From the sequence record NC_052659.1: a stretch of 64,000 nt of DNA; one strand, 5' to 3'. Shown here piece by piece: positions 48,133 through 60,946 of the stretch (its first letter is position 1; the number at the start of each line of letters is the position of its first letter). The notes beneath the pieces are model-generated. The model made no database searches. It was not told the origin of the DNA and worked only from the letters and a program-made list of their open reading frames with translations. A program made the translations under genes and the position numbers. The DNA is from Escherichia phage nieznany.

Positions 48133-49780
48133 ATTATGCTCCTTTGTAGATTATGTTGGTGCGTTCACACTCTGCCACCAGCAAGCCAAGCTTTGTAAAA
48201 CTTCATTAGACGTAAGCTACTCAACGGAACATTTTTACTCTCTTGCATGATAATCTCCTCTCATCGTTAGCCATCTTTCATGGCAATCATCAATCACCAA
48301 CATCATACGATCAATCTTAGGGAATTACAATCGAATTATCATAGGGGATTCCTATCAATTATCCCCTATATACCGATTATTTTTGACACCCCACTCTTGT
48401 ATAAAAAGTAACCCAAAATATCTACGGGGAGAGATTATTTCGGGACACCCTGTTTCATGGCAATCATGGCAAGAATATCTAATAGAATCAATATCATATG
48501 GCAAAAATCATGGCGCATACGTAAGAAGTGCTTAACGCGAATTTTCGGGCCGTCAGGTCCACGCAGCGACAATTCCCAAATATCATGCGAATGAGAATAA
48601 TTATCATTCGTATTCAATGACTTATGCAAAGCTCATGCCAACGTAGCGACAAGGTGGGCCACTTGATTATAAATCACACAAACACTTATTTATCAATGGT
48701 TTGGCAACCTCATCATATGACGGAACAATGTCAACTAATCCCGCTCATGACAAGCAGACTATTATTTATATGAGAATGATTATTATTTAAACGTTTATTA
48801 ATATAAAAACTAGAATAAATCAAGATTATTCTGATTTTATTTACGTTTAAGAGAAGGTGCTCAACATATCGCGTAGCGATAGTATTCGCCCCCCAAAAGA
48901 TTAGCCTTTATTTTCTTGTATGTTTATACACTATGTGCACACTATGCAACCTGTCGCTATTCGCTCATGTTGCTACGTGCAATTATTCATCTTGCTAATG
49001 ATGATCACACTGAACGATAGTGATAACTCTTGTAATTACCACAATGATTATTGTTATTGCGCTAATGTTATGATCTTGGTAATTACATATAATGCTAATA
49101 ATAAGCCAGCGCAATAAGTGTAAGCGTCATTACGCTTGCAATTATTGCAAGCTACGCAGTAACAAGAAATAACCGTCACCGATGGTTATGATTGTTGGGG
49201 TGTAGTTGGCTTATTATTAGCTCGCTATGTGTCCGGCATAGCGTGCTAATGATGACTCTGTGAATGATTAGTTTTGTAATGATTTCATTCAGGCACTATT
49301 TTGCTAATAGTTATTATTTTAATGGTTTCGTTTGTTATTGTTCGTTAGTTGGTTGTTTTGTCATGTTATCGTTATTTTGCTTAGTATTCATCATGGTTTG
49401 ATTGTTTGTCGTTATCAATCATCTTGCTATTATTCCTTTGATTATGATTAGTTTGCTTATTGTTTTATGTTGTTTGTTGGTTAGTTGTTGCGAACTATTA
49501 TCAACATTATAGTTATGCACTTATATTGCATAGATAAACATGGATAGATGATAATGGTTATCATTGCACCAGAAAGGAGGTAAAAGGGTGTTTTTGATGG
49601 TTTGTTGTTGGTTGTTGATCGATTTTAACCGCTTTAAATGGCTCTCTAACAGCCTGTAACCCTGGGATGTATGGTTATTCGTTTGCTGGTTGATTAGCTC
49701 GATACCACGATTTATTCAGTTTTGTTCTGTGTCGGTTTTTCATAGGCGAAAGCTATCAACATTGTTCGGGCAAAAAGAAA
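48133..49780. other. 1.65 kb noncoding, repeat-rich, strand-compositionally skewed region (G/T-rich tract 49300-49520; repeated GCTAAT(G/A)(A/T)T and CGTAGCGAC motifs)
   Basis: No convincing ORF; low-complexity GT-skew; at least five GCTAATGATGA-like copies (about 48991, 49058, 49092, 49243, 49303) and CGTAGCGAC-like copies in both orientations. Confidence 0.5.
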
Positions 49781-49797
49781 GGGCGCTTGGTGCGCCC
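49781..49797 (-). terminator. terminator hairpin GGGCGCACCAAGCGCCC followed by U-tract on minus strand (same element repeated at 52132)
   Basis: Identical 17-nt hairpin with AAAGAAA/TTTCTTT flanks at 49781 and 52132. Confidence 0.55.
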
Positions 49798-49813
49798 CTT
49801 GTTTTGTTGTCGA

Positions 49814-54987: not shown

Positions 54988-55044
54988 GGCGGCACCATTG
55001 CCGCCCTACGTGATAAACTATACCAGAAGTTTAAACAGTGTCAA
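54988..55044 (-). promoter_or_regulatory. exemplar PeSL cassette: -35 TTGACA (55044-55039), -10 TATAGT (55023-55018), hairpin GGCGGCAATGGTGCCGCC (55005-54988)
   Basis: Seen in sequence. Confidence 0.6.
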
Positions 55045-55050
55045 CCGTTT

Positions 55051-55413
55051 TTATTCGTAAATTTTACCGCTTTCGGCCCATACCATAACGCGGCGCATAC
55101 TATCCCAAGTGTTTTGATCCAAGTTTAAGCCGTGCAACTCTTCGGTACTTCCCAGACCAGGTACCGCTTTGTTGTAAGTCGCATATAAGCGCCCTTGATA
55201 CTCATACGCCAGAGTAAGATCCGTTTGAATCATCTTTTTAAGCATAGCATTAAGCATCATATTAGCGGCATGTTGATCACGTTTTAGCGGTAACATGTCA
55301 ATAAGGGCGCGATAAGCTGAAACATGAATATCAACCGTTTCACGTGGTAAATTTTTCATATCATCGCGGAAAGATACCAGATTAAACATGATAGTATTGA
55401 TTTGCTTGCTCAT
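55051..55413 (-). CDS. hypothetical protein
   Basis: 120 aa ORF. Confidence 0.4.
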   Translation of the reverse strand: MSKQINTIMFNLVSFRDDMKNLPRETVDIHVSAYRALIDMLPLKRDQHAANMMLNAMLKKMIQTDLTLAYEYQGRLYATYNKAVPGLGSTEELHGLNLDQNTWDSMRRVMVWAESGKIYE

Positions 55414-55681
55414 TGTGTTACCCTTTTTTGTTTTGGCGGGGAAGTATTCCGCCGCCCTATGTGATACATCTTATCAGATTAAAAAACGTTGTCAAGAATA
55501 TTTTTAGAAAATAATAGCCGCTACTACAACCCAAAATGGAACGGCTAGAATGATAGCGTTAATCGTTCCAACCGTCAAGCTATTTTCTTTATTAATCATT
55601 GTAAGCCTCTTGCATAATTTCACTATGAGCGGCACCATTGCCGCCCTACGTGGTAAATATTATGCCAGTGGCGGCGATATG

Positions 55682-56248
55682 TCAAAGACTATTTTCAAAG
55701 TTTTCTAGTGCGATCCTTTTTTCTTCCTCTGTCGGCTGATAATCAGGAAAAGCATCAACACACAACAACGGCGGGATCTCTTCGTACTCTTCCTCTTCCG
55801 TTGTCTCCTCGTCTTCCTCCTGGGCTATGGCTGCAATTTTGGCTAATTTTCTTTCAGCTTGAATCAATTTACCATCAAGTACGTTTTTTGCCATGTTGTA
55901 AGCGGTCCAGGTGATGCGCTTACTTTCCAGGGCCTGATCGAGCGCCGCTATCTTGCTGGGGTATTCATCCAGGACACGAAAAGCTGGATCAACTTTGTAC
56001 AAAGGATTATCTTTCGCGCCGTCGCTCGCATCTTCCGCACTGGATAAATCAGCGTTACCATTTGCCAGCCAGCCAGGGCGCACATAACGCGCTTTTACGT
56101 TGCCGTTACTACGTGCTAATCTGTTACCTATTTGCTCACCACTATATCCCGTGGATTCATCGATAAGATGATCGGGAATGATGCGCGGATCATCTGCTTC
56201 ATGTTTTACCCAAGACTGGATCACATATTCGCGGCCCATATTAACCAC
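55682..56248 (-). CDS. hypothetical protein with acidic C-terminal region
   Basis: 188 aa ORF. Confidence 0.45.
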   Translation of the reverse strand: MVNMGREYVIQSWVKHEADDPRIIPDHLIDESTGYSGEQIGNRLARSNGNVKARYVRPGWLANGNADLSSAEDASDGAKDNPLYKVDPAFRVLDEYPSKIAALDQALESKRITWTAYNMAKNVLDGKLIQAERKLAKIAAIAQEEDEETTEEEEYEEIPPLLCVDAFPDYQPTEEEKRIALENFENSL

Positions 56249-56498
56249 CTTTTTTCAACAATTGGCATACTTTAAAAAGACTTGCTGAATCCTTGCAAGG
56301 GTAGAAAGATGTACGATAATCACGTACGCCAACCTTGAGGATCTCGATGTTCTCGCATGTTGTTTGATCAAAGATATTTATTTCATCACGCCCCCTTATA
56401 TAAACATAGTGGGGATGTATTAACGCATATTTTGCTAATCTGTAAAAAGCGTTATCTTTGAACGCGATCACGTGACCTTTTAATTTGATGTAAAACAT
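56241..56498 (-). CDS. hypothetical small protein
   Basis: 85 aa ORF. Confidence 0.4.
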   Translation of the reverse strand: MFYIKLKGHVIAFKDNAFYRLAKYALIHPHYVYIRGRDEINIFDQTTCENIEILKVGVRDYRTSFYPCKDSASLFKVCQLLKKGG

Positions 56499-56574
56499 TC
56501 TACCACCTTACAAATAGCGGGAACTATTCCCGCTTTATGTAACATATTAACAAATTATTCGTTAATGTCAAGCC

Positions 56575-56847
56575 TTAAAGCAAAAACGCTACATCTTGCG
56601 CTTTTAATGTAGTGTCAACCATTTTCGGGCTTTTATAATCAACAAAGCGCGCGGTTTTTTCAATAGCAAAACCGAGATAATCTTGTTTATTGAATTTACA
56701 TTCTTTCTTAAATGTTTCCCGCGCCACGGTGATCGCTGCGTCCAGGGATAAACGCCCGTCAATATTGATATTAGCGAAAGATCCGCCACCGCTCATAGGT
56801 TTACCAGTTGTGCCAGCTACGATCATTGTTGCGCTATATGATGCCAT
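56575..56847 (-). CDS. hypothetical small protein
   Basis: 90 aa ORF. Confidence 0.4.
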   Translation of the reverse strand: MASYSATMIVAGTTGKPMSGGGSFANINIDGRLSLDAAITVARETFKKECKFNKQDYLGFAIEKTARFVDYKSPKMVDTTLKAQDVAFLL

Positions 56848-56937
56848 GATGATAATCTCTCTTCTGTTACGAGCGGGAAACCACTTCCCGCCCTATGTGA
56901 TACATCTTATCAGGTTGTTGTTTGTTGTCAATAGTTT

Positions 56938-57135
56938 TTATTCTATTCCTGCAATTTGATTAACGCGCTTGCATTTTGTAGCGTGCTGGTCTTCTGTAAT
57001 GACTCCCATTTCTAACAGGGAATCAATGAAAGATAAAACCGTTTCATGATCATCCTGGGGGTGACTGAACTCAGTAAAACCGTTTACCACTACGTTGATT
57101 TGTCCAGCTTTCGCCACAATGTGCAATGTTGCCAT
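56938..57135 (-). CDS. hypothetical small protein
   Basis: GGAG then ATG 57135. Confidence 0.35.
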   Translation of the reverse strand: MATLHIVAKAGQINVVVNGFTEFSHPQDDHETVLSFIDSLLEMGVITEDQHATKCKRVNQIAGIE

Positions 57136-57321
57136 GATCTTAACTCCAAATAGTGAGCGGCACCATTGCCGCCCTACAAGATGAATACTACGCCGCCGTC
57201 TGGTTAACGTCAACCATTTTTCAATCTTTTTTATTTTCTTTTTGCTTGCTATATATAAAGAAAAGGGCTATTATCTTTCTACCGCGCCAACCAGGGCGCA
57301 CAACAAAGAAAGGGCGATACC

Positions 57322-57585
57322 ATGACAACTACATTACACCTTATGCACTCATTGGGCTGGCAAGGCGGCACGGTGCACCAGGTAGCAAGCGCAACGGGCT
57401 TAAAGGTTGAAACAGTTCTCAACCTGGGCGATCATAGGGTGGAAGAAATAGATCATTTTGATACGTTCGCAAATGGTTATCTATGGGCTTGCAGTGGCGG
57501 CGGGGAAAGCAAGATACCACCAGGGGCGCGGGGCGATATGTATTTTTGGTTAGGTGTCCTATCCTGGCAAGAAAACAAAAAATAA
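57322..57585 (+). CDS. hypothetical protein in GC-rich island (plus strand, opposite to neighbours); coding status uncertain
   Basis: 87 aa ORF with AAGGG upstream; local GC content visibly higher than surrounding phage DNA. Confidence 0.3.
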   Translation: MTTTLHLMHSLGWQGGTVHQVASATGLKVETVLNLGDHRVEEIDHFDTFANGYLWACSGGGESKIPPGARGDMYFWLGVLSWQENKK

Positions 57586-57587
57586 TC

Positions 57588-57616
57588 TTGACAAGCCCAG
57601 GGATCGGGCTTATACT
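57588..57616 (+). promoter_or_regulatory. near-consensus sigma70 promoter TTGACA-17-TATACT on plus strand
   Basis: Seen in sequence; spacer AGCCCAGGGATCGGGCT is itself an inverted repeat. Confidence 0.5.
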
Positions 57617-57845
57617 GTTTTACATACAGAAGAGGAAGCGCCACCCCCACGGCGTAAAGGCGGGGCTAACATACCAGGGGGCACTGGTTGGAAGGTTGAT
57701 CGCCGGTAGGCTGGGCGCTATATATTTGTAAAGAAATGTAAAGATAAAATAATCGCTTGCTTTCCTAGCTGGATCTGTTATTCTTATTACATGGCGAGGG
57801 GACACGGGAGCGCGAGACAAACACCGCCCCTGCGCGTCATTCTCT

Positions 57846-57953
57846 AAATGAGATTGATTCTTATTTAATAAGGTAAATGACAATCATTCTCATTTATAAA
57901 CTTAAATGCGAATCATTATCATTTGCATTTCCATATGAGAACTCTTCTCATTT
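57846..57953. repeat. four 21-bp palindromic sites (AAATGAGA-N5-TCTCATTT type) at exact 29-bp periodicity: iteron/operator-like array
   Basis: Sites begin at 57846, 57875, 57904, 57933. Confidence 0.6.
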
Positions 57954-57975
57954 TCACCTGCATAAAAATTTTTGT

Positions 57976-58152
57976 AAACTTTAAATTTTGCTTTTGTACT
58001 TTCATTTTTGTAAAAGCAAAAAAACTTTAAATACTGTGGGCGCGCAAAATTTTTAAAATTTTCCTTGACTTTTGAGTTTTGTTTTGTATCTAACATTTTA
58101 AGATAATTTTCCTAAACTTTAAATTTTGGTTTTCAACTTTCACTTTTGTAAA
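57976..58152. repeat. two copies of a 39-bp direct repeat AAACTTTAAATTTTG(C/G)TTTT..ACTTTCA(T/C)TTTTGTAAA (57976-58014 and 58114-58152) in an AT-rich noncoding region
   Basis: Seen in sequence. Confidence 0.55.
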
Positions 58153-58394
58153 TTCTTAAAAAGTTTAAATAATTTGAGGGATTTTTGAGATAAAAGATAG
58201 TGGGAATTTGATATAACCTTTAATCTTATTGGTAAACCTTCAGGAACCCACTCAGATCGAATCCTAGTGATGCAAACTGAAAAAGACAAGGGTTTGTATA
58301 GGACAAAATAACAGGCTCTCTACGGTGCTGTAGGAGCCTTATTTCTGGGCTACAAAGTGACACCTTTGTTCTAAAAATGAAAAAAGTTAAAATA

Positions 58395-58937
58395 TCACAA
58401 ATATCGTCTTTGCGGTATTTTGTCTGGGAAAAGTATTTCGATCAGTTTATTATGATATTTGCCTAAAAGATTCTGCCCTTTCCAGGTAGCAGGGTTTAGC
58501 ACCCCTGGTTCATACATTCCCATTCCAATACCGTAAACCTTATCGTAAGGACTTGCTTCAACAAACGTTTTGTATTGGTAAAGGTGTAAGTCTGCATACA
58601 AATCTGGATTCTGTACATATTTCAAGCATAAGCCTCGCATAACAATACGCTCACGGTTCTCTTCCCACATATCATTATTAAAACCAGATACCGCTCGACC
58701 CATACGTTTGTAGTATGCTTGTTTCCTCTCGTTGTCACGTATAGTTGAGTGATCAAGGATAGCTGCTGCAATCGCATGATCCTTGAACAGCAAAGCCTTA
58801 CGCCACATCATATATTGCTCAACACAACAGAAAGTCTCATTGTAACCTGGTTCAGTTTCTGTAAAGGGTGCAATATACCAATTACTAAACACATCTTTAT
58901 GTGAAAAGAAGAATACATATTCATCAGTTATTCTCAT
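58395..58937 (-). CDS. NADAR / YbiA-like (DUF1768) domain protein
   Basis: N-terminal YVFFFSHKDVFSNWYIAPF and EQYMMWRKALLFKD resemble the NADAR family signature. Confidence 0.5.
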   Translation of the reverse strand: MRITDEYVFFFSHKDVFSNWYIAPFTETEPGYNETFCCVEQYMMWRKALLFKDHAIAAAILDHSTIRDNERKQAYYKRMGRAVSGFNNDMWEENRERIVMRGLCLKYVQNPDLYADLHLYQYKTFVEASPYDKVYGIGMGMYEPGVLNPATWKGQNLLGKYHNKLIEILFPDKIPQRRYL

Positions 58938-59149
58938 TTTTTCATGCCTTCTAAAACTTTAGCTTGCCCGTCTTGAAAAGCTTTCATCAGAACTATCTTA
59001 AGATTGACTTCCAAACGTTCTTCATCCTCTCTATAACAATCCAACACTGCTTTAAGTTCATCATAGTGGTTCAGAATAGGTTTAAAGATTTCATGATCTG
59101 CTAAACGTGCCATAGTTTCTCCTTTGTTAGTCCATCCACCAGTAGCCAT
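58934..59149 (-). CDS. hypothetical protein
   Basis: 71 aa ORF. Confidence 0.4.
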   Translation of the reverse strand: MATGGWTNKGETMARLADHEIFKPILNHYDELKAVLDCYREDEERLEVNLKIVLMKAFQDGQAKVLEGMKK

Positions 59150-59492
59150 AAACTGCGTCTGCGTCGATGAGTTTGTGTTTGTTGTTCCGCATGTAGTCTA
59201 AGATAAGTAGACGTTTATTGTATCTGGAGAGATTATGACCCTCTTTTCCGCCATAGTCAAAATATTTTGCAAGATCTTTACACTCAAACAAAATCAGTTC
59301 GGGAGTTTCTTCACACTGGTCTGTCTGGTACACTTGACGAATGATCATGTATACATCGTCGTCTTCCGCTAAATGCTCTACTGGTCCACATCCAGCAGGA
59401 ACAAATTCATAGTCCCATCTGATCAGATGTTTCTCTACTGCTTCAAAGAAATCCATCCTTTCATTGCGCATAATTTGAACGTCAACTAACAT
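59127..59492 (-). CDS. hypothetical protein
   Basis: 121 aa ORF. Confidence 0.4.
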   Translation of the reverse strand: MLVDVQIMRNERMDFFEAVEKHLIRWDYEFVPAGCGPVEHLAEDDDVYMIIRQVYQTDQCEETPELILFECKDLAKYFDYGGKEGHNLSRYNKRLLILDYMRNNKHKLIDADAVYGYWWMD

Positions 59493-60946
59493 GTTTCCTC
59501 CTCTCTCATTATTCCACCTGCTTGGTTGATAGCACTTAAGACGATAGCCAAATCCTCGCGCAGGAAGGTTTCACTATGACCATCTTTCATGTGCAAGCGT
59601 TCTACACAGCCAATAGACGGTAGAATCTGATCAGTCTTAGACTTTAGCTTACTCTCTAACGCCCTGCAAGCTTGGTAGGACGGCAGATCGAACAATGCTA
59701 TACGGCGCATAGAGTAATTGTTGTTTGCATTCTGCCCTTTGATCCTGATATCACTGTCCTTTGCAATCCCCAACTTGTAAGCTCCCGTGTCTTCTCCGTA
59801 CTCATCAAGAATAATATTGATGTAAAATTCTTGCATATTTCTGTTCTTACAGCCTGGACAACCTTTCCCATTGAGATAATCGGTAGGTGTGATCGTTTGC
59901 TCTCCATGCTCCCTACATAGATATTTAAACTTGCTGTTATTGCTTACCTTATCAATGAATCCTATAAATTGATCCCCTCGTTCCTGGCAAGCTTTGGTCA
60001 TACGGTAGGCCCATTGTTCAGGAGTGTAATGATAATATTTAGAACAACGGCAAGGAAGGCCACCCCTTTTCAAATGACTCATCTTCATCTCAAATTTATT
60101 ATCGCATAAGCCTTCTTTACAATAATCATCCTCTGCACATATAGGACATTCTACAATCCAGTAAACCTGACGACCTAATCTATCTACTCTATCGCTACGA
60201 TAATATTTACGCTCTACATTATCAGGACAAGCTTTTATAAAATCTTCAACATGTTGTTTATCCTCCATAGTATTCCTTTGTTTCGTCATTTCTCTTTGAC
60301 AACTGTAGCATCCAGTCCCTTGTTTAGCACTGTTTACAGTGGTAGTGCACCATTGACCATGAACCTTACACTCACAAATCAACTTAGTGCGGGAACCGTT
60401 CCACGGTTCCACATAGCCTCTAACAATCCAGGGTTTTTCTTTATAAGCTTCTTCTACTTCTTCTTTATGTTTCTCCCATGCAATCGATGTTCTTTCTCTG
60501 TTTGCTTCTCCCATACACTTCCTGCATCCACTCCCGTTTTTCGCAGAAGATATAGAAGTAGACCTCCACTCCCCATGTAAAGCACAACAACAAACCAGTT
60601 TAGTATTCCATCCTTTCCATTCTCCGTGCCATCCTGTAACAGTCCAAAACTTACCTGCCTGATTGTAAGTGGTTTGCACTTCTTCTTTATATTGCTCCCA
60701 GGTTTTTGATTTGTTTATAGATACTGCTTTACTTATAATCTCCCTACCGCATTCTGGACAACCCCTCCCTAGTTTAGCGGTATTTATGCTTGTTGTTTTC
60801 CATTCTCCATGCAGAGCACAGATGCATCTAAGTTTAGTTTTATTGCCGTTCCACGGCTCAATATAATCTACAACAGTCCAAGACTTACCTTGATAAGCTT
60901 GTTTTATATCTGTTTTATATTGTTCCCAAGTGACTATTTTTGGCAC
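59486..60946 (-). CDS. zinc-finger repeat protein (three or four about 65-aa Cys/His modules) with possible C-terminal GIY-YIG-like nuclease domain
   Basis: Repeated W..Y.EPWNG..TKL.C.C..HGEW.T....AK.G.GC..C modules; C-terminal FYINIIL-x9-YKLGIA-x6-R resembles GIY-(10)-YIG-R. Confidence 0.35.
   Translation of the reverse strand: MPKIVTWEQYKTDIKQAYQGKSWTVVDYIEPWNGNKTKLRCICALHGEWKTTSINTAKLGRGCPECGREIISKAVSINKSKTWEQYKEEVQTTYNQAGKFWTVTGWHGEWKGWNTKLVCCCALHGEWRSTSISSAKNGSGCRKCMGEANRERTSIAWEKHKEEVEEAYKEKPWIVRGYVEPWNGSRTKLICECKVHGQWCTTTVNSAKQGTGCYSCQREMTKQRNTMEDKQHVEDFIKACPDNVERKYYRSDRVDRLGRQVYWIVECPICAEDDYCKEGLCDNKFEMKMSHLKRGGLPCRCSKYYHYTPEQWAYRMTKACQERGDQFIGFIDKVSNNSKFKYLCREHGEQTITPTDYLNGKGCPGCKNRNMQEFYINIILDEYGEDTGAYKLGIAKDSDIRIKGQNANNNYSMRRIALFDLPSYQACRALESKLKSKTDQILPSIGCVERLHMKDGHSETFLREDLAIVLSAINQAGGIMREEETC

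Follow-up and report, generated by a model that had tools for sequence, protein, structure and literature searches.

The genome of Escherichia phage nieznany (NC_052659.1) carries, within the 64,000-nucleotide stretch analyzed here (the window, to which all unqualified positions refer), a G+C-rich island at 57230-57830. Rather than foreign DNA, the island is very probably a resident and conserved cassette that includes a genuine small-RNA gene not described before. The product of this gene, termed RNA1, appears to be a previously undescribed, widely conserved structured RNA, and the cassette as a whole is a plus-strand early transcription unit of phAPEC8- and rV5-like phages, whose early expression is predicted. 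The window belongs to a Phapecoctavirus (subfamily Stephanstirmvirinae), and its segment 57000-58400 is 99.9% identical to Escherichia phage vB_EcoM_Schickermooser. RNA1 and the promoter that precedes it are composed of the following features.

57588..57616, plus strand: promoter P1, TTGACA-17-TATACT, matching the consensus at 11 of 12 positions, with a predicted start near 57622-57624.
57622..57720, plus strand: RNA1, a conserved structured small RNA of about 85-100 nt, with a covariance-model match at 57632-57716.
57639-57642 with 57651-57654, plus strand: HP1, the 5' hairpin of RNA1 (CGCC/GGCG).
57644-57648 with 57662-57665, plus strand: the pseudoknot of RNA1, which joins the HP1 loop to a G-run.
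57666-57694, plus strand: P3, the bulged hairpin of RNA1.
57699-57709, plus strand: the near-invariant single-stranded segment AUCGCCGGUAG of RNA1.

RNA1 is defined by near-invariant blocks separated by a hairpin that is free to vary in sequence. An alignment of 25 sequences from several genera contains 46 invariant columns, and the near-invariant blocks are ACGCC-A-CCCC-ACGGCG-NAAAGGC-GGGG-CUAA, GAAGGU and AUCGCCGGUAG. Between these blocks, P3 varies freely in both sequence and length, and its shape is constant across ~10 sequence versions: a CU/AG closure of 2 bp, then an internal loop and a lower stem, and beyond a single bulged nucleotide (usually an A after a U) the upper stem. Each of the eight P3 pairs has changed on both sides in a MAFFT alignment of 24 sequences, where 91.7% of the cells pair. 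The covariation score of P3 in these 24 sequences is 0.374 versus 0.121 for shuffles (0/500 reach 0.374) and no more than 0.145 for slid controls, and it is 0.279 versus 0.088 in 40 model-aligned sequences, although shuffle statistics of this kind overstate significance because the sequences are related and one of the alignments was fitted to the model. The pairs include four G-U and no A-C combinations, which favors the plus strand as the one that encodes RNA1.

The pseudoknot is of the H-type, with an A-rich connecting loop between the hairpin and the G-run, and it occurs in two compensated forms. Of 55 distinct sequences, 39 carry CCCC, UCCC or CUCC opposite GGGG, and 11 carry CCAA opposite UUGG. 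A covariance model of the family finds a single match in the window (57632-57716, 82 bits, E about 1e-23) and separates members, which score 68-100 bits, from decoys, which score 24 bits or less. The decoys are chance matches in coding DNA from a 15-mer scan of IMG/VR with CGCCTACCAACGGCG, a scan rejected as a source of homologues for the reason that it returned mostly such matches. Two further helices were considered and dropped: GGCGG/UCGCC, proposed by RNAalifold, whose 5' strand is missing in type II and KP2025 variants, and a stem that would join the 5' leader to the 3' tail (AGCGCC/GGCGCU), which is confined to the window's own lineage and not conserved.

Besides the inflated shuffle statistics, several observations weigh against this picture of a folded, independently transcribed RNA. 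Five of the 55 distinct sequences hold just three of the four pseudoknot pairs (L158 does so only when the register is shifted), and the support for the pseudoknot amounts to essentially one switch between two alleles. The HP1 stem is invariant and thus uninformative for covariation, and its GGCG strand could alternatively pair with the CGCC of the downstream AUCGCCGG. The single-sequence folding energy of RNA1 is unremarkable (z = -1.5). Finally, the scan found no terminator-like site after RNA1, which may be the 5' part of a longer transcript; its transcription start, its 3' end and its existence as a transcript are predictions.

Annotation of the region is inconsistent. The island lies inside a 1.2-kb gap (57214-58394) between minus-strand early genes, in which the Tuntematon record places a plus-strand ORF, phAPEC8 the minus-strand ORF 00257, Schickermooser a split "frameshift" and several records nothing. 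A minus-strand protein at 57479-57820 was called by the annotators of phAPEC8 (phAPEC8_00257) and Schickermooser (Schickermooser_00256/00257, the "frameshift"), and ORFs of 57 and 87 aa do exist on that strand. Neither has a Pfam or PHROG match, however, and their frame overlaps ORF87 (a plus-strand gene described below), two promoters and the covarying RNA. Homopolymer indels of 1-3 bases break the frame among close relatives, and the stretch is unannotated in distant ones. In close relatives, the C-run of RNA1 is four or five long and the G-run four, five or seven, and these single-base indels rule out coding on either strand. The annotated minus-strand protein is hardly credible.

The small RNA has a promoter that is kept with it. 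P1 appears to be a near-consensus host sigma-70 promoter. It is present in all 33 distinct upstream sequences, with 9-12 of 12 matches, a 17-18-nt spacer and a distance of 15-22 nt to the RNA1 core, so that its position is near-fixed although the spacer sequences diverge. RNA1 behaves, moreover, as a gene of its own: its promoter is conserved, and it is able to occur where the remainder of the unit is missing. The Aeromonas phage vB_AceP_PAc (Plateaulakevirus, 124 kb) holds a type II RNA1 behind its own promoter, TTGCTT-17-TATAAT, with a convergent gene ending ~70 nt downstream and with none of the second promoter, palindromes and repeats that follow RNA1 in the window.

A second line of support comes from an interrupted copy. 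In Raoultella phage Ro1 (L135, 1750-2575), a type I RNA1 is cut at AUCGCUGG by an inserted ORF, Ro1_00039, which matches PHROG families of HNH endonucleases (8e-79). Beyond the inserted ORF lie a new promoter and then a complete type II RNA1, an arrangement that may be read as a homing-endonuclease cassette carrying a replacement RNA1 allele. Pectobacterium phage P7_Pc (L137, 701-974) has both RNA1 copies without the endonuclease ORF. Taken together, the replacement allele and the two compensated pseudoknot alleles suggest that RNA1 is needed. Separately, the closely related phages UPEC06 (L004) and A7_1 (L033) have near-identical flanks and different RNA1 alleles (type I and type II, respectively), a contrast which suggests that the RNA1 module has been exchanged by recombination.

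The distribution of the island is that of a resident phage element. It is matched at the same place by 233 phage records from several genera, of which 125 cover at least 80% of it, and synteny of its layout extends over both Vequintavirinae and Stephanstirmvirinae. Among distant genera, similarity is reduced to the part from 57619 on, exactly behind P1, and this part is mostly unannotated there. Such distant relatives include phages of Klebsiella and Cronobacter, Salmonella phage PVP-SE1, Pectobacterium phage phiTE, phages of Proteus and Erwinia, and one listed as an Acinetobacter phage.

A sequence-only reading of the window had described the island as a recently acquired fragment of host or plasmid origin, or a small RNA gene, and the two halves of that proposal fared differently. 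The raised G+C content, which is the one feature in favor of recent acquisition, is borne out by computation: 57230-57830 has 48.25% G+C versus a window mean of 38.6% (601-nt windows, SD 0.026, z = 3.6), and only 0.16% of 601-nt windows reach this value. No 300-nt window in the 64 kb exceeds the island's peak G+C of 0.52. The excess is nevertheless modest, given that 55531-56371 also rises to 0.51, and it is explained by the composition of the structured elements and ORF87. GC skew becomes positive at the island (+0.12 to +0.20), a value that is unremarkable window-wide, as 38% of windows reach it.

Against acquisition stand sensitive blastn searches with 57230-57860, which returned zero matches in 5,426 complete E. 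coli genomes and zero in 72,556 plasmids. An invariant 21-mer of the core occurs in only three contigs among the genomes of 185,579 species, all of them metagenome-assembled and one phage-sized (139 kb). With syntenic conservation in two phage subfamilies, no donor found and a presence that is not patchy (the 125 records with at least 80% coverage), a horizontally acquired island is refuted for the collections searched, and a recent host or plasmid source has a negligible probability overall. The small-RNA half of the proposal holds up, given the conserved promoter, the conservation that outlasts the flanking genes, the covarying pairs and the stand-alone copy in a distant phage.

Much of the remaining description in the sequence-only reading is accurate. 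The 87-aa plus-strand ORF lies at 57322..57585 as described, and TTGACA-17-TATACT at 57588..57616 is the best sigma-70 match in 56500-58900. Every annotated neighboring gene is on the minus strand, in keeping with the all-minus-strand surroundings it reported, and the promoter is indeed directed outward, toward non-coding DNA. Its GC-rich "leader" at 57620-57830 does contain a structured RNA; it is not, however, a single unit, and resolves into RNA1, an A/T-rich linker with TGTAAAGA twice, a second promoter and the start of a second hairpin RNA. These and the elements farther downstream are as follows.

57727..57744: the direct repeat TGTAAAGA-N2-TGTAAAGA, kept in nearly all relatives, just upstream of the -35 element of P2.
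57757..57784, plus strand: promoter P2, TTGCTT, a 16-nt spacer and an extended -10 TGT-TATTCT, read from the sequence, with a start near 57791.
57791..57843, plus strand: RNA2, the predicted 5' hairpin of the P2 transcript, with an outer stem of 57791-57796 with 57835-57840 and a loop that holds the conserved GAGACAAACACC.
57846..57953: four Fur-box-like palindromes of ~21 bp, consensus AAATGAGAATNATTCTCATTT, exactly 29 bp apart.
57967..58176: an A/T-rich (25% G+C), iteron-like region with a 72-nt direct repeat in two copies, 57967-58038 and 58105-58176.
58313..58339: a hairpin with T-rich flanks on both strands, read from the sequence; phAPEC8 annotates a minus-strand terminator here.

The TGTAAAGA repeat is a candidate activator site or UP-like element. 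P2 falls below the threshold of the promoter scan and aligns with TTGCAA-17-TATATT and TTGATC-17-TATTAT of relatives; its counterparts in other genera are stronger. RNA2 has a weak consensus fold (-3 kcal/mol), and its outer stem shows G-C to A-U covariation. The start of RNA2 resembles a minus-strand early element, ACATAGGGCGG / TATCACATAGGGCGG. The latter occurs in 11 minus-strand copies in the window versus 0.74 expected, ten of them within the early-gene region at 50.7-56.9 kb and the other at 1929. The one copy whose surroundings were read (56888-56902) stands right behind an early promoter, at the start of a G+C-rich 5' hairpin. Given this likeness, P2 and RNA2 look like a standard early promoter and leader turned to the plus strand. 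This element probably corresponds to the "phage promoters" repeat that the phAPEC8 record attributes to PHIRE, and it is also the source of a recurrent spurious ORF text, GNHFPPYVIHL.

The palindromes are present in one to five copies at the same place in relatives that infect Escherichia, Klebsiella, Salmonella, Cronobacter, Pectobacterium and Erwinia. The Fur box has the consensus GATAATGATAATCATTATC, or TGATAATNATTATCA in its 7-1-7 form. Two of the window's palindromes, TGACAATCATTCTCA at 57878 and TGCGAATCATTATCA at 57907, each differ from the 15-nt 7-1-7 consensus as given here by two mismatches, and the commonest palindrome of the relatives, TGAGAATGATTATCA, differs from it by one. Across the whole window, eight sites lie within two mismatches of this 7-1-7 form versus 1.0 expected. 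Unlike Fur boxes, however, the palindromes prefer the half-site GAGAAT to GATAAT and are located downstream of P2 rather than over a promoter. We interpret them as a putative operator array whose binder could be a phage protein rather than Fur. The same palindromes are found in a second ORF-poor region of the window, 48140-49810 (~1.6 kb), at 48589 (AATGAGAATAATTATCATT), 48770 (ATGAGAATGATTATTATTT) and 49547 (ATGATAATGGTTATCATT); this region may explain the two matching places seen in many relatives.

Past the palindromes, the two copies of the 72-nt repeat are 138 bp apart and contain a recurrent motif, TTTGTAAA, that is also present upstream of P2. In other genera, this position is occupied by different repeat arrays (such as ...ATACGATCTCGATTTTGAAAAACCGATCGAGAACC...), and it is the occurrence of differing arrays at the same place that makes the arrangement iteron-like. 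The hairpin at 58313-58339 is probably a two-way terminator that would close the plus-strand unit.

This layout, in which tandem P1 and P2 are aimed at four spaced palindromes and then at DNA of 25% G+C with 72-nt repeats, or other arrays in relatives, raises an alternative in which RNA1 and RNA2 are the cis-acting structured heads of origin transcripts that activate an origin or prime synthesis through an R-loop. A G-rich RNA (skew +0.2) that lacks a terminator would suit such a role. In the rV5 genome paper, moreover, the replisome is described with a T7-like primase-helicase, the region is boxed merely as "non-coding", and skew could not place the origin (PMC3606486). On the other hand, P2, palindromes and repeats are all absent downstream of RNA1 in the Aeromonas phage, and the site is not unique, as 48140-49810 holds the same palindromes. 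A primer would have no obvious need for a conserved pseudoknot and bulged hairpin. We therefore regard an origin role as possible but rather improbable.

The mechanism that we favor, tentatively and as something short of probable, is that of a trans-acting folded RNA. Host RNA polymerase would probably transcribe RNA1 strongly right at the start of infection, and RNA1 would then act in trans, its invariant surfaces binding either a second RNA or a protein of host or phage origin. This mechanism is favored because RNA1 has invariant segments that are unpaired or in tertiary contact, tolerates sequence change in P3, is found by itself in one phage and, where disrupted, has a replacement. A more ambitious form of the proposal, which we offer as doubtful speculation, is that RNA1 is the founder of a new class of phage regulatory RNA. 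It would be an early pseudoknotted RNA that switches conformation to license the start of replication, or that sequesters a host protein such as a defense nuclease or an RNA-binding regulator, and it would be needed enough that an invading homing endonuclease must bring a functional, compensated allele.

A conformational switch could also operate in cis. RNA1 would in that case be riboswitch- or antiterminator-like, with the pseudoknot hairpin CGCC/GGCG exchanged for GGCG/CGCC with AUCGCCGG, and would control read-through into the non-coding region. Its place directly behind a promoter and its H-type pseudoknot with an A-rich loop are features that such a switch would share, and the duplicated CGCC permits two mutually exclusive helices, of which the minimum-free-energy fold takes the alternative one. 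However, there is little for such a switch to control: no plus-strand ORF of at least 40 aa lies between 57884 and the next minus-strand gene, and no terminator or ribosome-site platform is present. Among the riboswitches and leaders of Rfam, none matches at E up to 1-5, and the competing helices, being invariant, support neither state. A cis-acting switch is thus clearly unlikely.

RNA1 does not belong to a catalogued family. Rfam 15 has no match at E up to 1 in 55000-60000, and a search of nine relatives at E up to 5 yields nothing over RNA1, just spurious miRNA matches on the palindromes. By ARAGORN, the entire window is free of tRNA and tmRNA genes. Literature searches turned up nothing relevant on transcriptomes of this phage group, RNA1 sequence strings or Fur boxes of lytic phages. 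Resemblances noted by eye, to 4.5S RNA, the 3' end or decoding site of 16S rRNA, the 5' half of tRNA and type I-E CRISPR repeats, were dropped as unsupported.

The nearest analogues of RNA1 appear to be functional only. HK022 put RNAs are cis-acting antiterminator RNAs located just downstream of early promoters. Like them, RNA1 is a conserved folded RNA with a bulged stem-loop right after an early host-type promoter, but no homology is shown, RNA1 has no downstream genes or terminators to read through, and in the Aeromonas phage it stands alone facing a convergent gene. Lytic phages also encode small stable RNAs of unknown function, such as the T4 species 1 and 2 (band C and D) RNAs. These are short, structured, non-coding, early (as predicted for RNA1) and conserved within a phage group. 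They have no sequence or Rfam relation to RNA1, which lies outside any tRNA cluster and has its own sigma-70 promoter and a pseudoknot.

Origin transcripts such as ColE1 RNA II, those of the T7 phi1.1A/B origin and the R-loops of T4 oriF/oriG resemble the cassette in having one or more promoters followed by A/T-rich DNA and a G-rich structured transcript. The cassette differs in that its architecture is not kept in every RNA1 phage. In preQ1-I-type aptamers, which are also H-type pseudoknots, the hairpin loop likewise pairs with a 3' tail past an A-rich linker; RNA1 is larger, has an extra bulged hairpin and lacks both an Rfam match and a regulated ORF.

The one described non-coding RNA of this phage group is the pseudo-ToxI of phiTE, at the escape locus of that phage, 106,714-106,772 (PMC3475682). 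As phiTE holds an RNA1 homologue, identity of the two was suspected and then rejected, the homologue being near 39.7 kb, at a different locus. Both are non-coding, pseudoknot-forming RNAs of the same phage group, but the tandem 36-nt repeats of ToxI are absent from RNA1, which has no similarity to ToxI.

Phages related to phAPEC8, rV5, PVP-SE1 and phi92 are widely isolated and are under development for therapy and biocontrol. Their 1-1.6-kb "non-coding" regions are unexplained and have been filled by annotators with spurious ORFs. Among the most conserved stretches of these genomes is a promoter-linked, predicted RNA with a covariation-backed structure. The gains are a correction to annotation, a candidate Rfam family and a handle on early regulation or replication control. 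The Fur-box-like array next to RNA1 raises the further possibility that phage development is tied to the iron status of the host.

The first part of the cassette, up to and including the P1 spacer, is made up of a small gene and its flanking signals.

57246..57274, plus strand: a candidate ORF87 promoter, TTGCTA-17-TATTAT, a weak 9/12 match from a consensus scan only.
57322..57585, plus strand: ORF87, a small conserved protein, identified by PHROG 19316, homologues, codon pattern and an AlphaFold2 model.
57593..57611, plus strand: a G+C-rich, terminator-like hairpin in the P1 spacer, from the promoter and terminator scan, directly after the ORF87 stop codon.

ORF87 is a real conserved protein, as its comparisons indicate. 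It matches PHROG 19316 with E = 1.8e-57 (residues 2-87 on profile positions 3-88 of 88), and 25 homologues of equal length, with identity down to 39%, share the motifs LGWQGGTVHQVAxATGL and FWLGVL. Differences by codon position number 15/8/38 and 19/13/37 in relatives at 77% and 74% nucleotide identity, and this concentration of substitutions at position 3 is the pattern of a translated gene. AlphaFold2 models ORF87 as all-helical, with five helices and a mean pLDDT of 94. A Pfam search gave no match, structural searches gave no significant match beyond its own family (BFVD returns that family only), and the best result of a PDB profile search was HU at E = 0.7. A helix-turn-helix (HTH) assignment found no significant sequence or fold match, and weak matches to HTH proteins and to the HU N-terminus were not counted as evidence.

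The ORF87 message probably ends at the hairpin within the P1 spacer, as the hairpin directly follows the stop codon of this upstream ORF; the scan flags it as terminator-like, but its tail, UAUACUGUUUU, is interrupted. In relatives, the P1 spacer almost always contains a G+C-rich hairpin, often with a GNRA loop, whose sequence is lineage-specific. In L142-L144, the promoter of the upstream small ORF likewise has a hairpin in its spacer.

The slot just upstream of P1 is variable in content. In PVP-SE1-like phages and Mydovirus phages it holds an unrelated 60-aa DUF7170 protein, and in one metagenomic phage a third small ORF; the 60-aa ORFs of PVP-SE1 and BIS47 were considered as ORF87 homologues and rejected, as they belong to DUF7170 / PHROG 4653. 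At the other end of the gap, the right-hand neighbor (58395-58937, minus strand) is a NADAR-domain protein (Pfam E = 3e-35) that several records annotate as GTP cyclohydrolase II.

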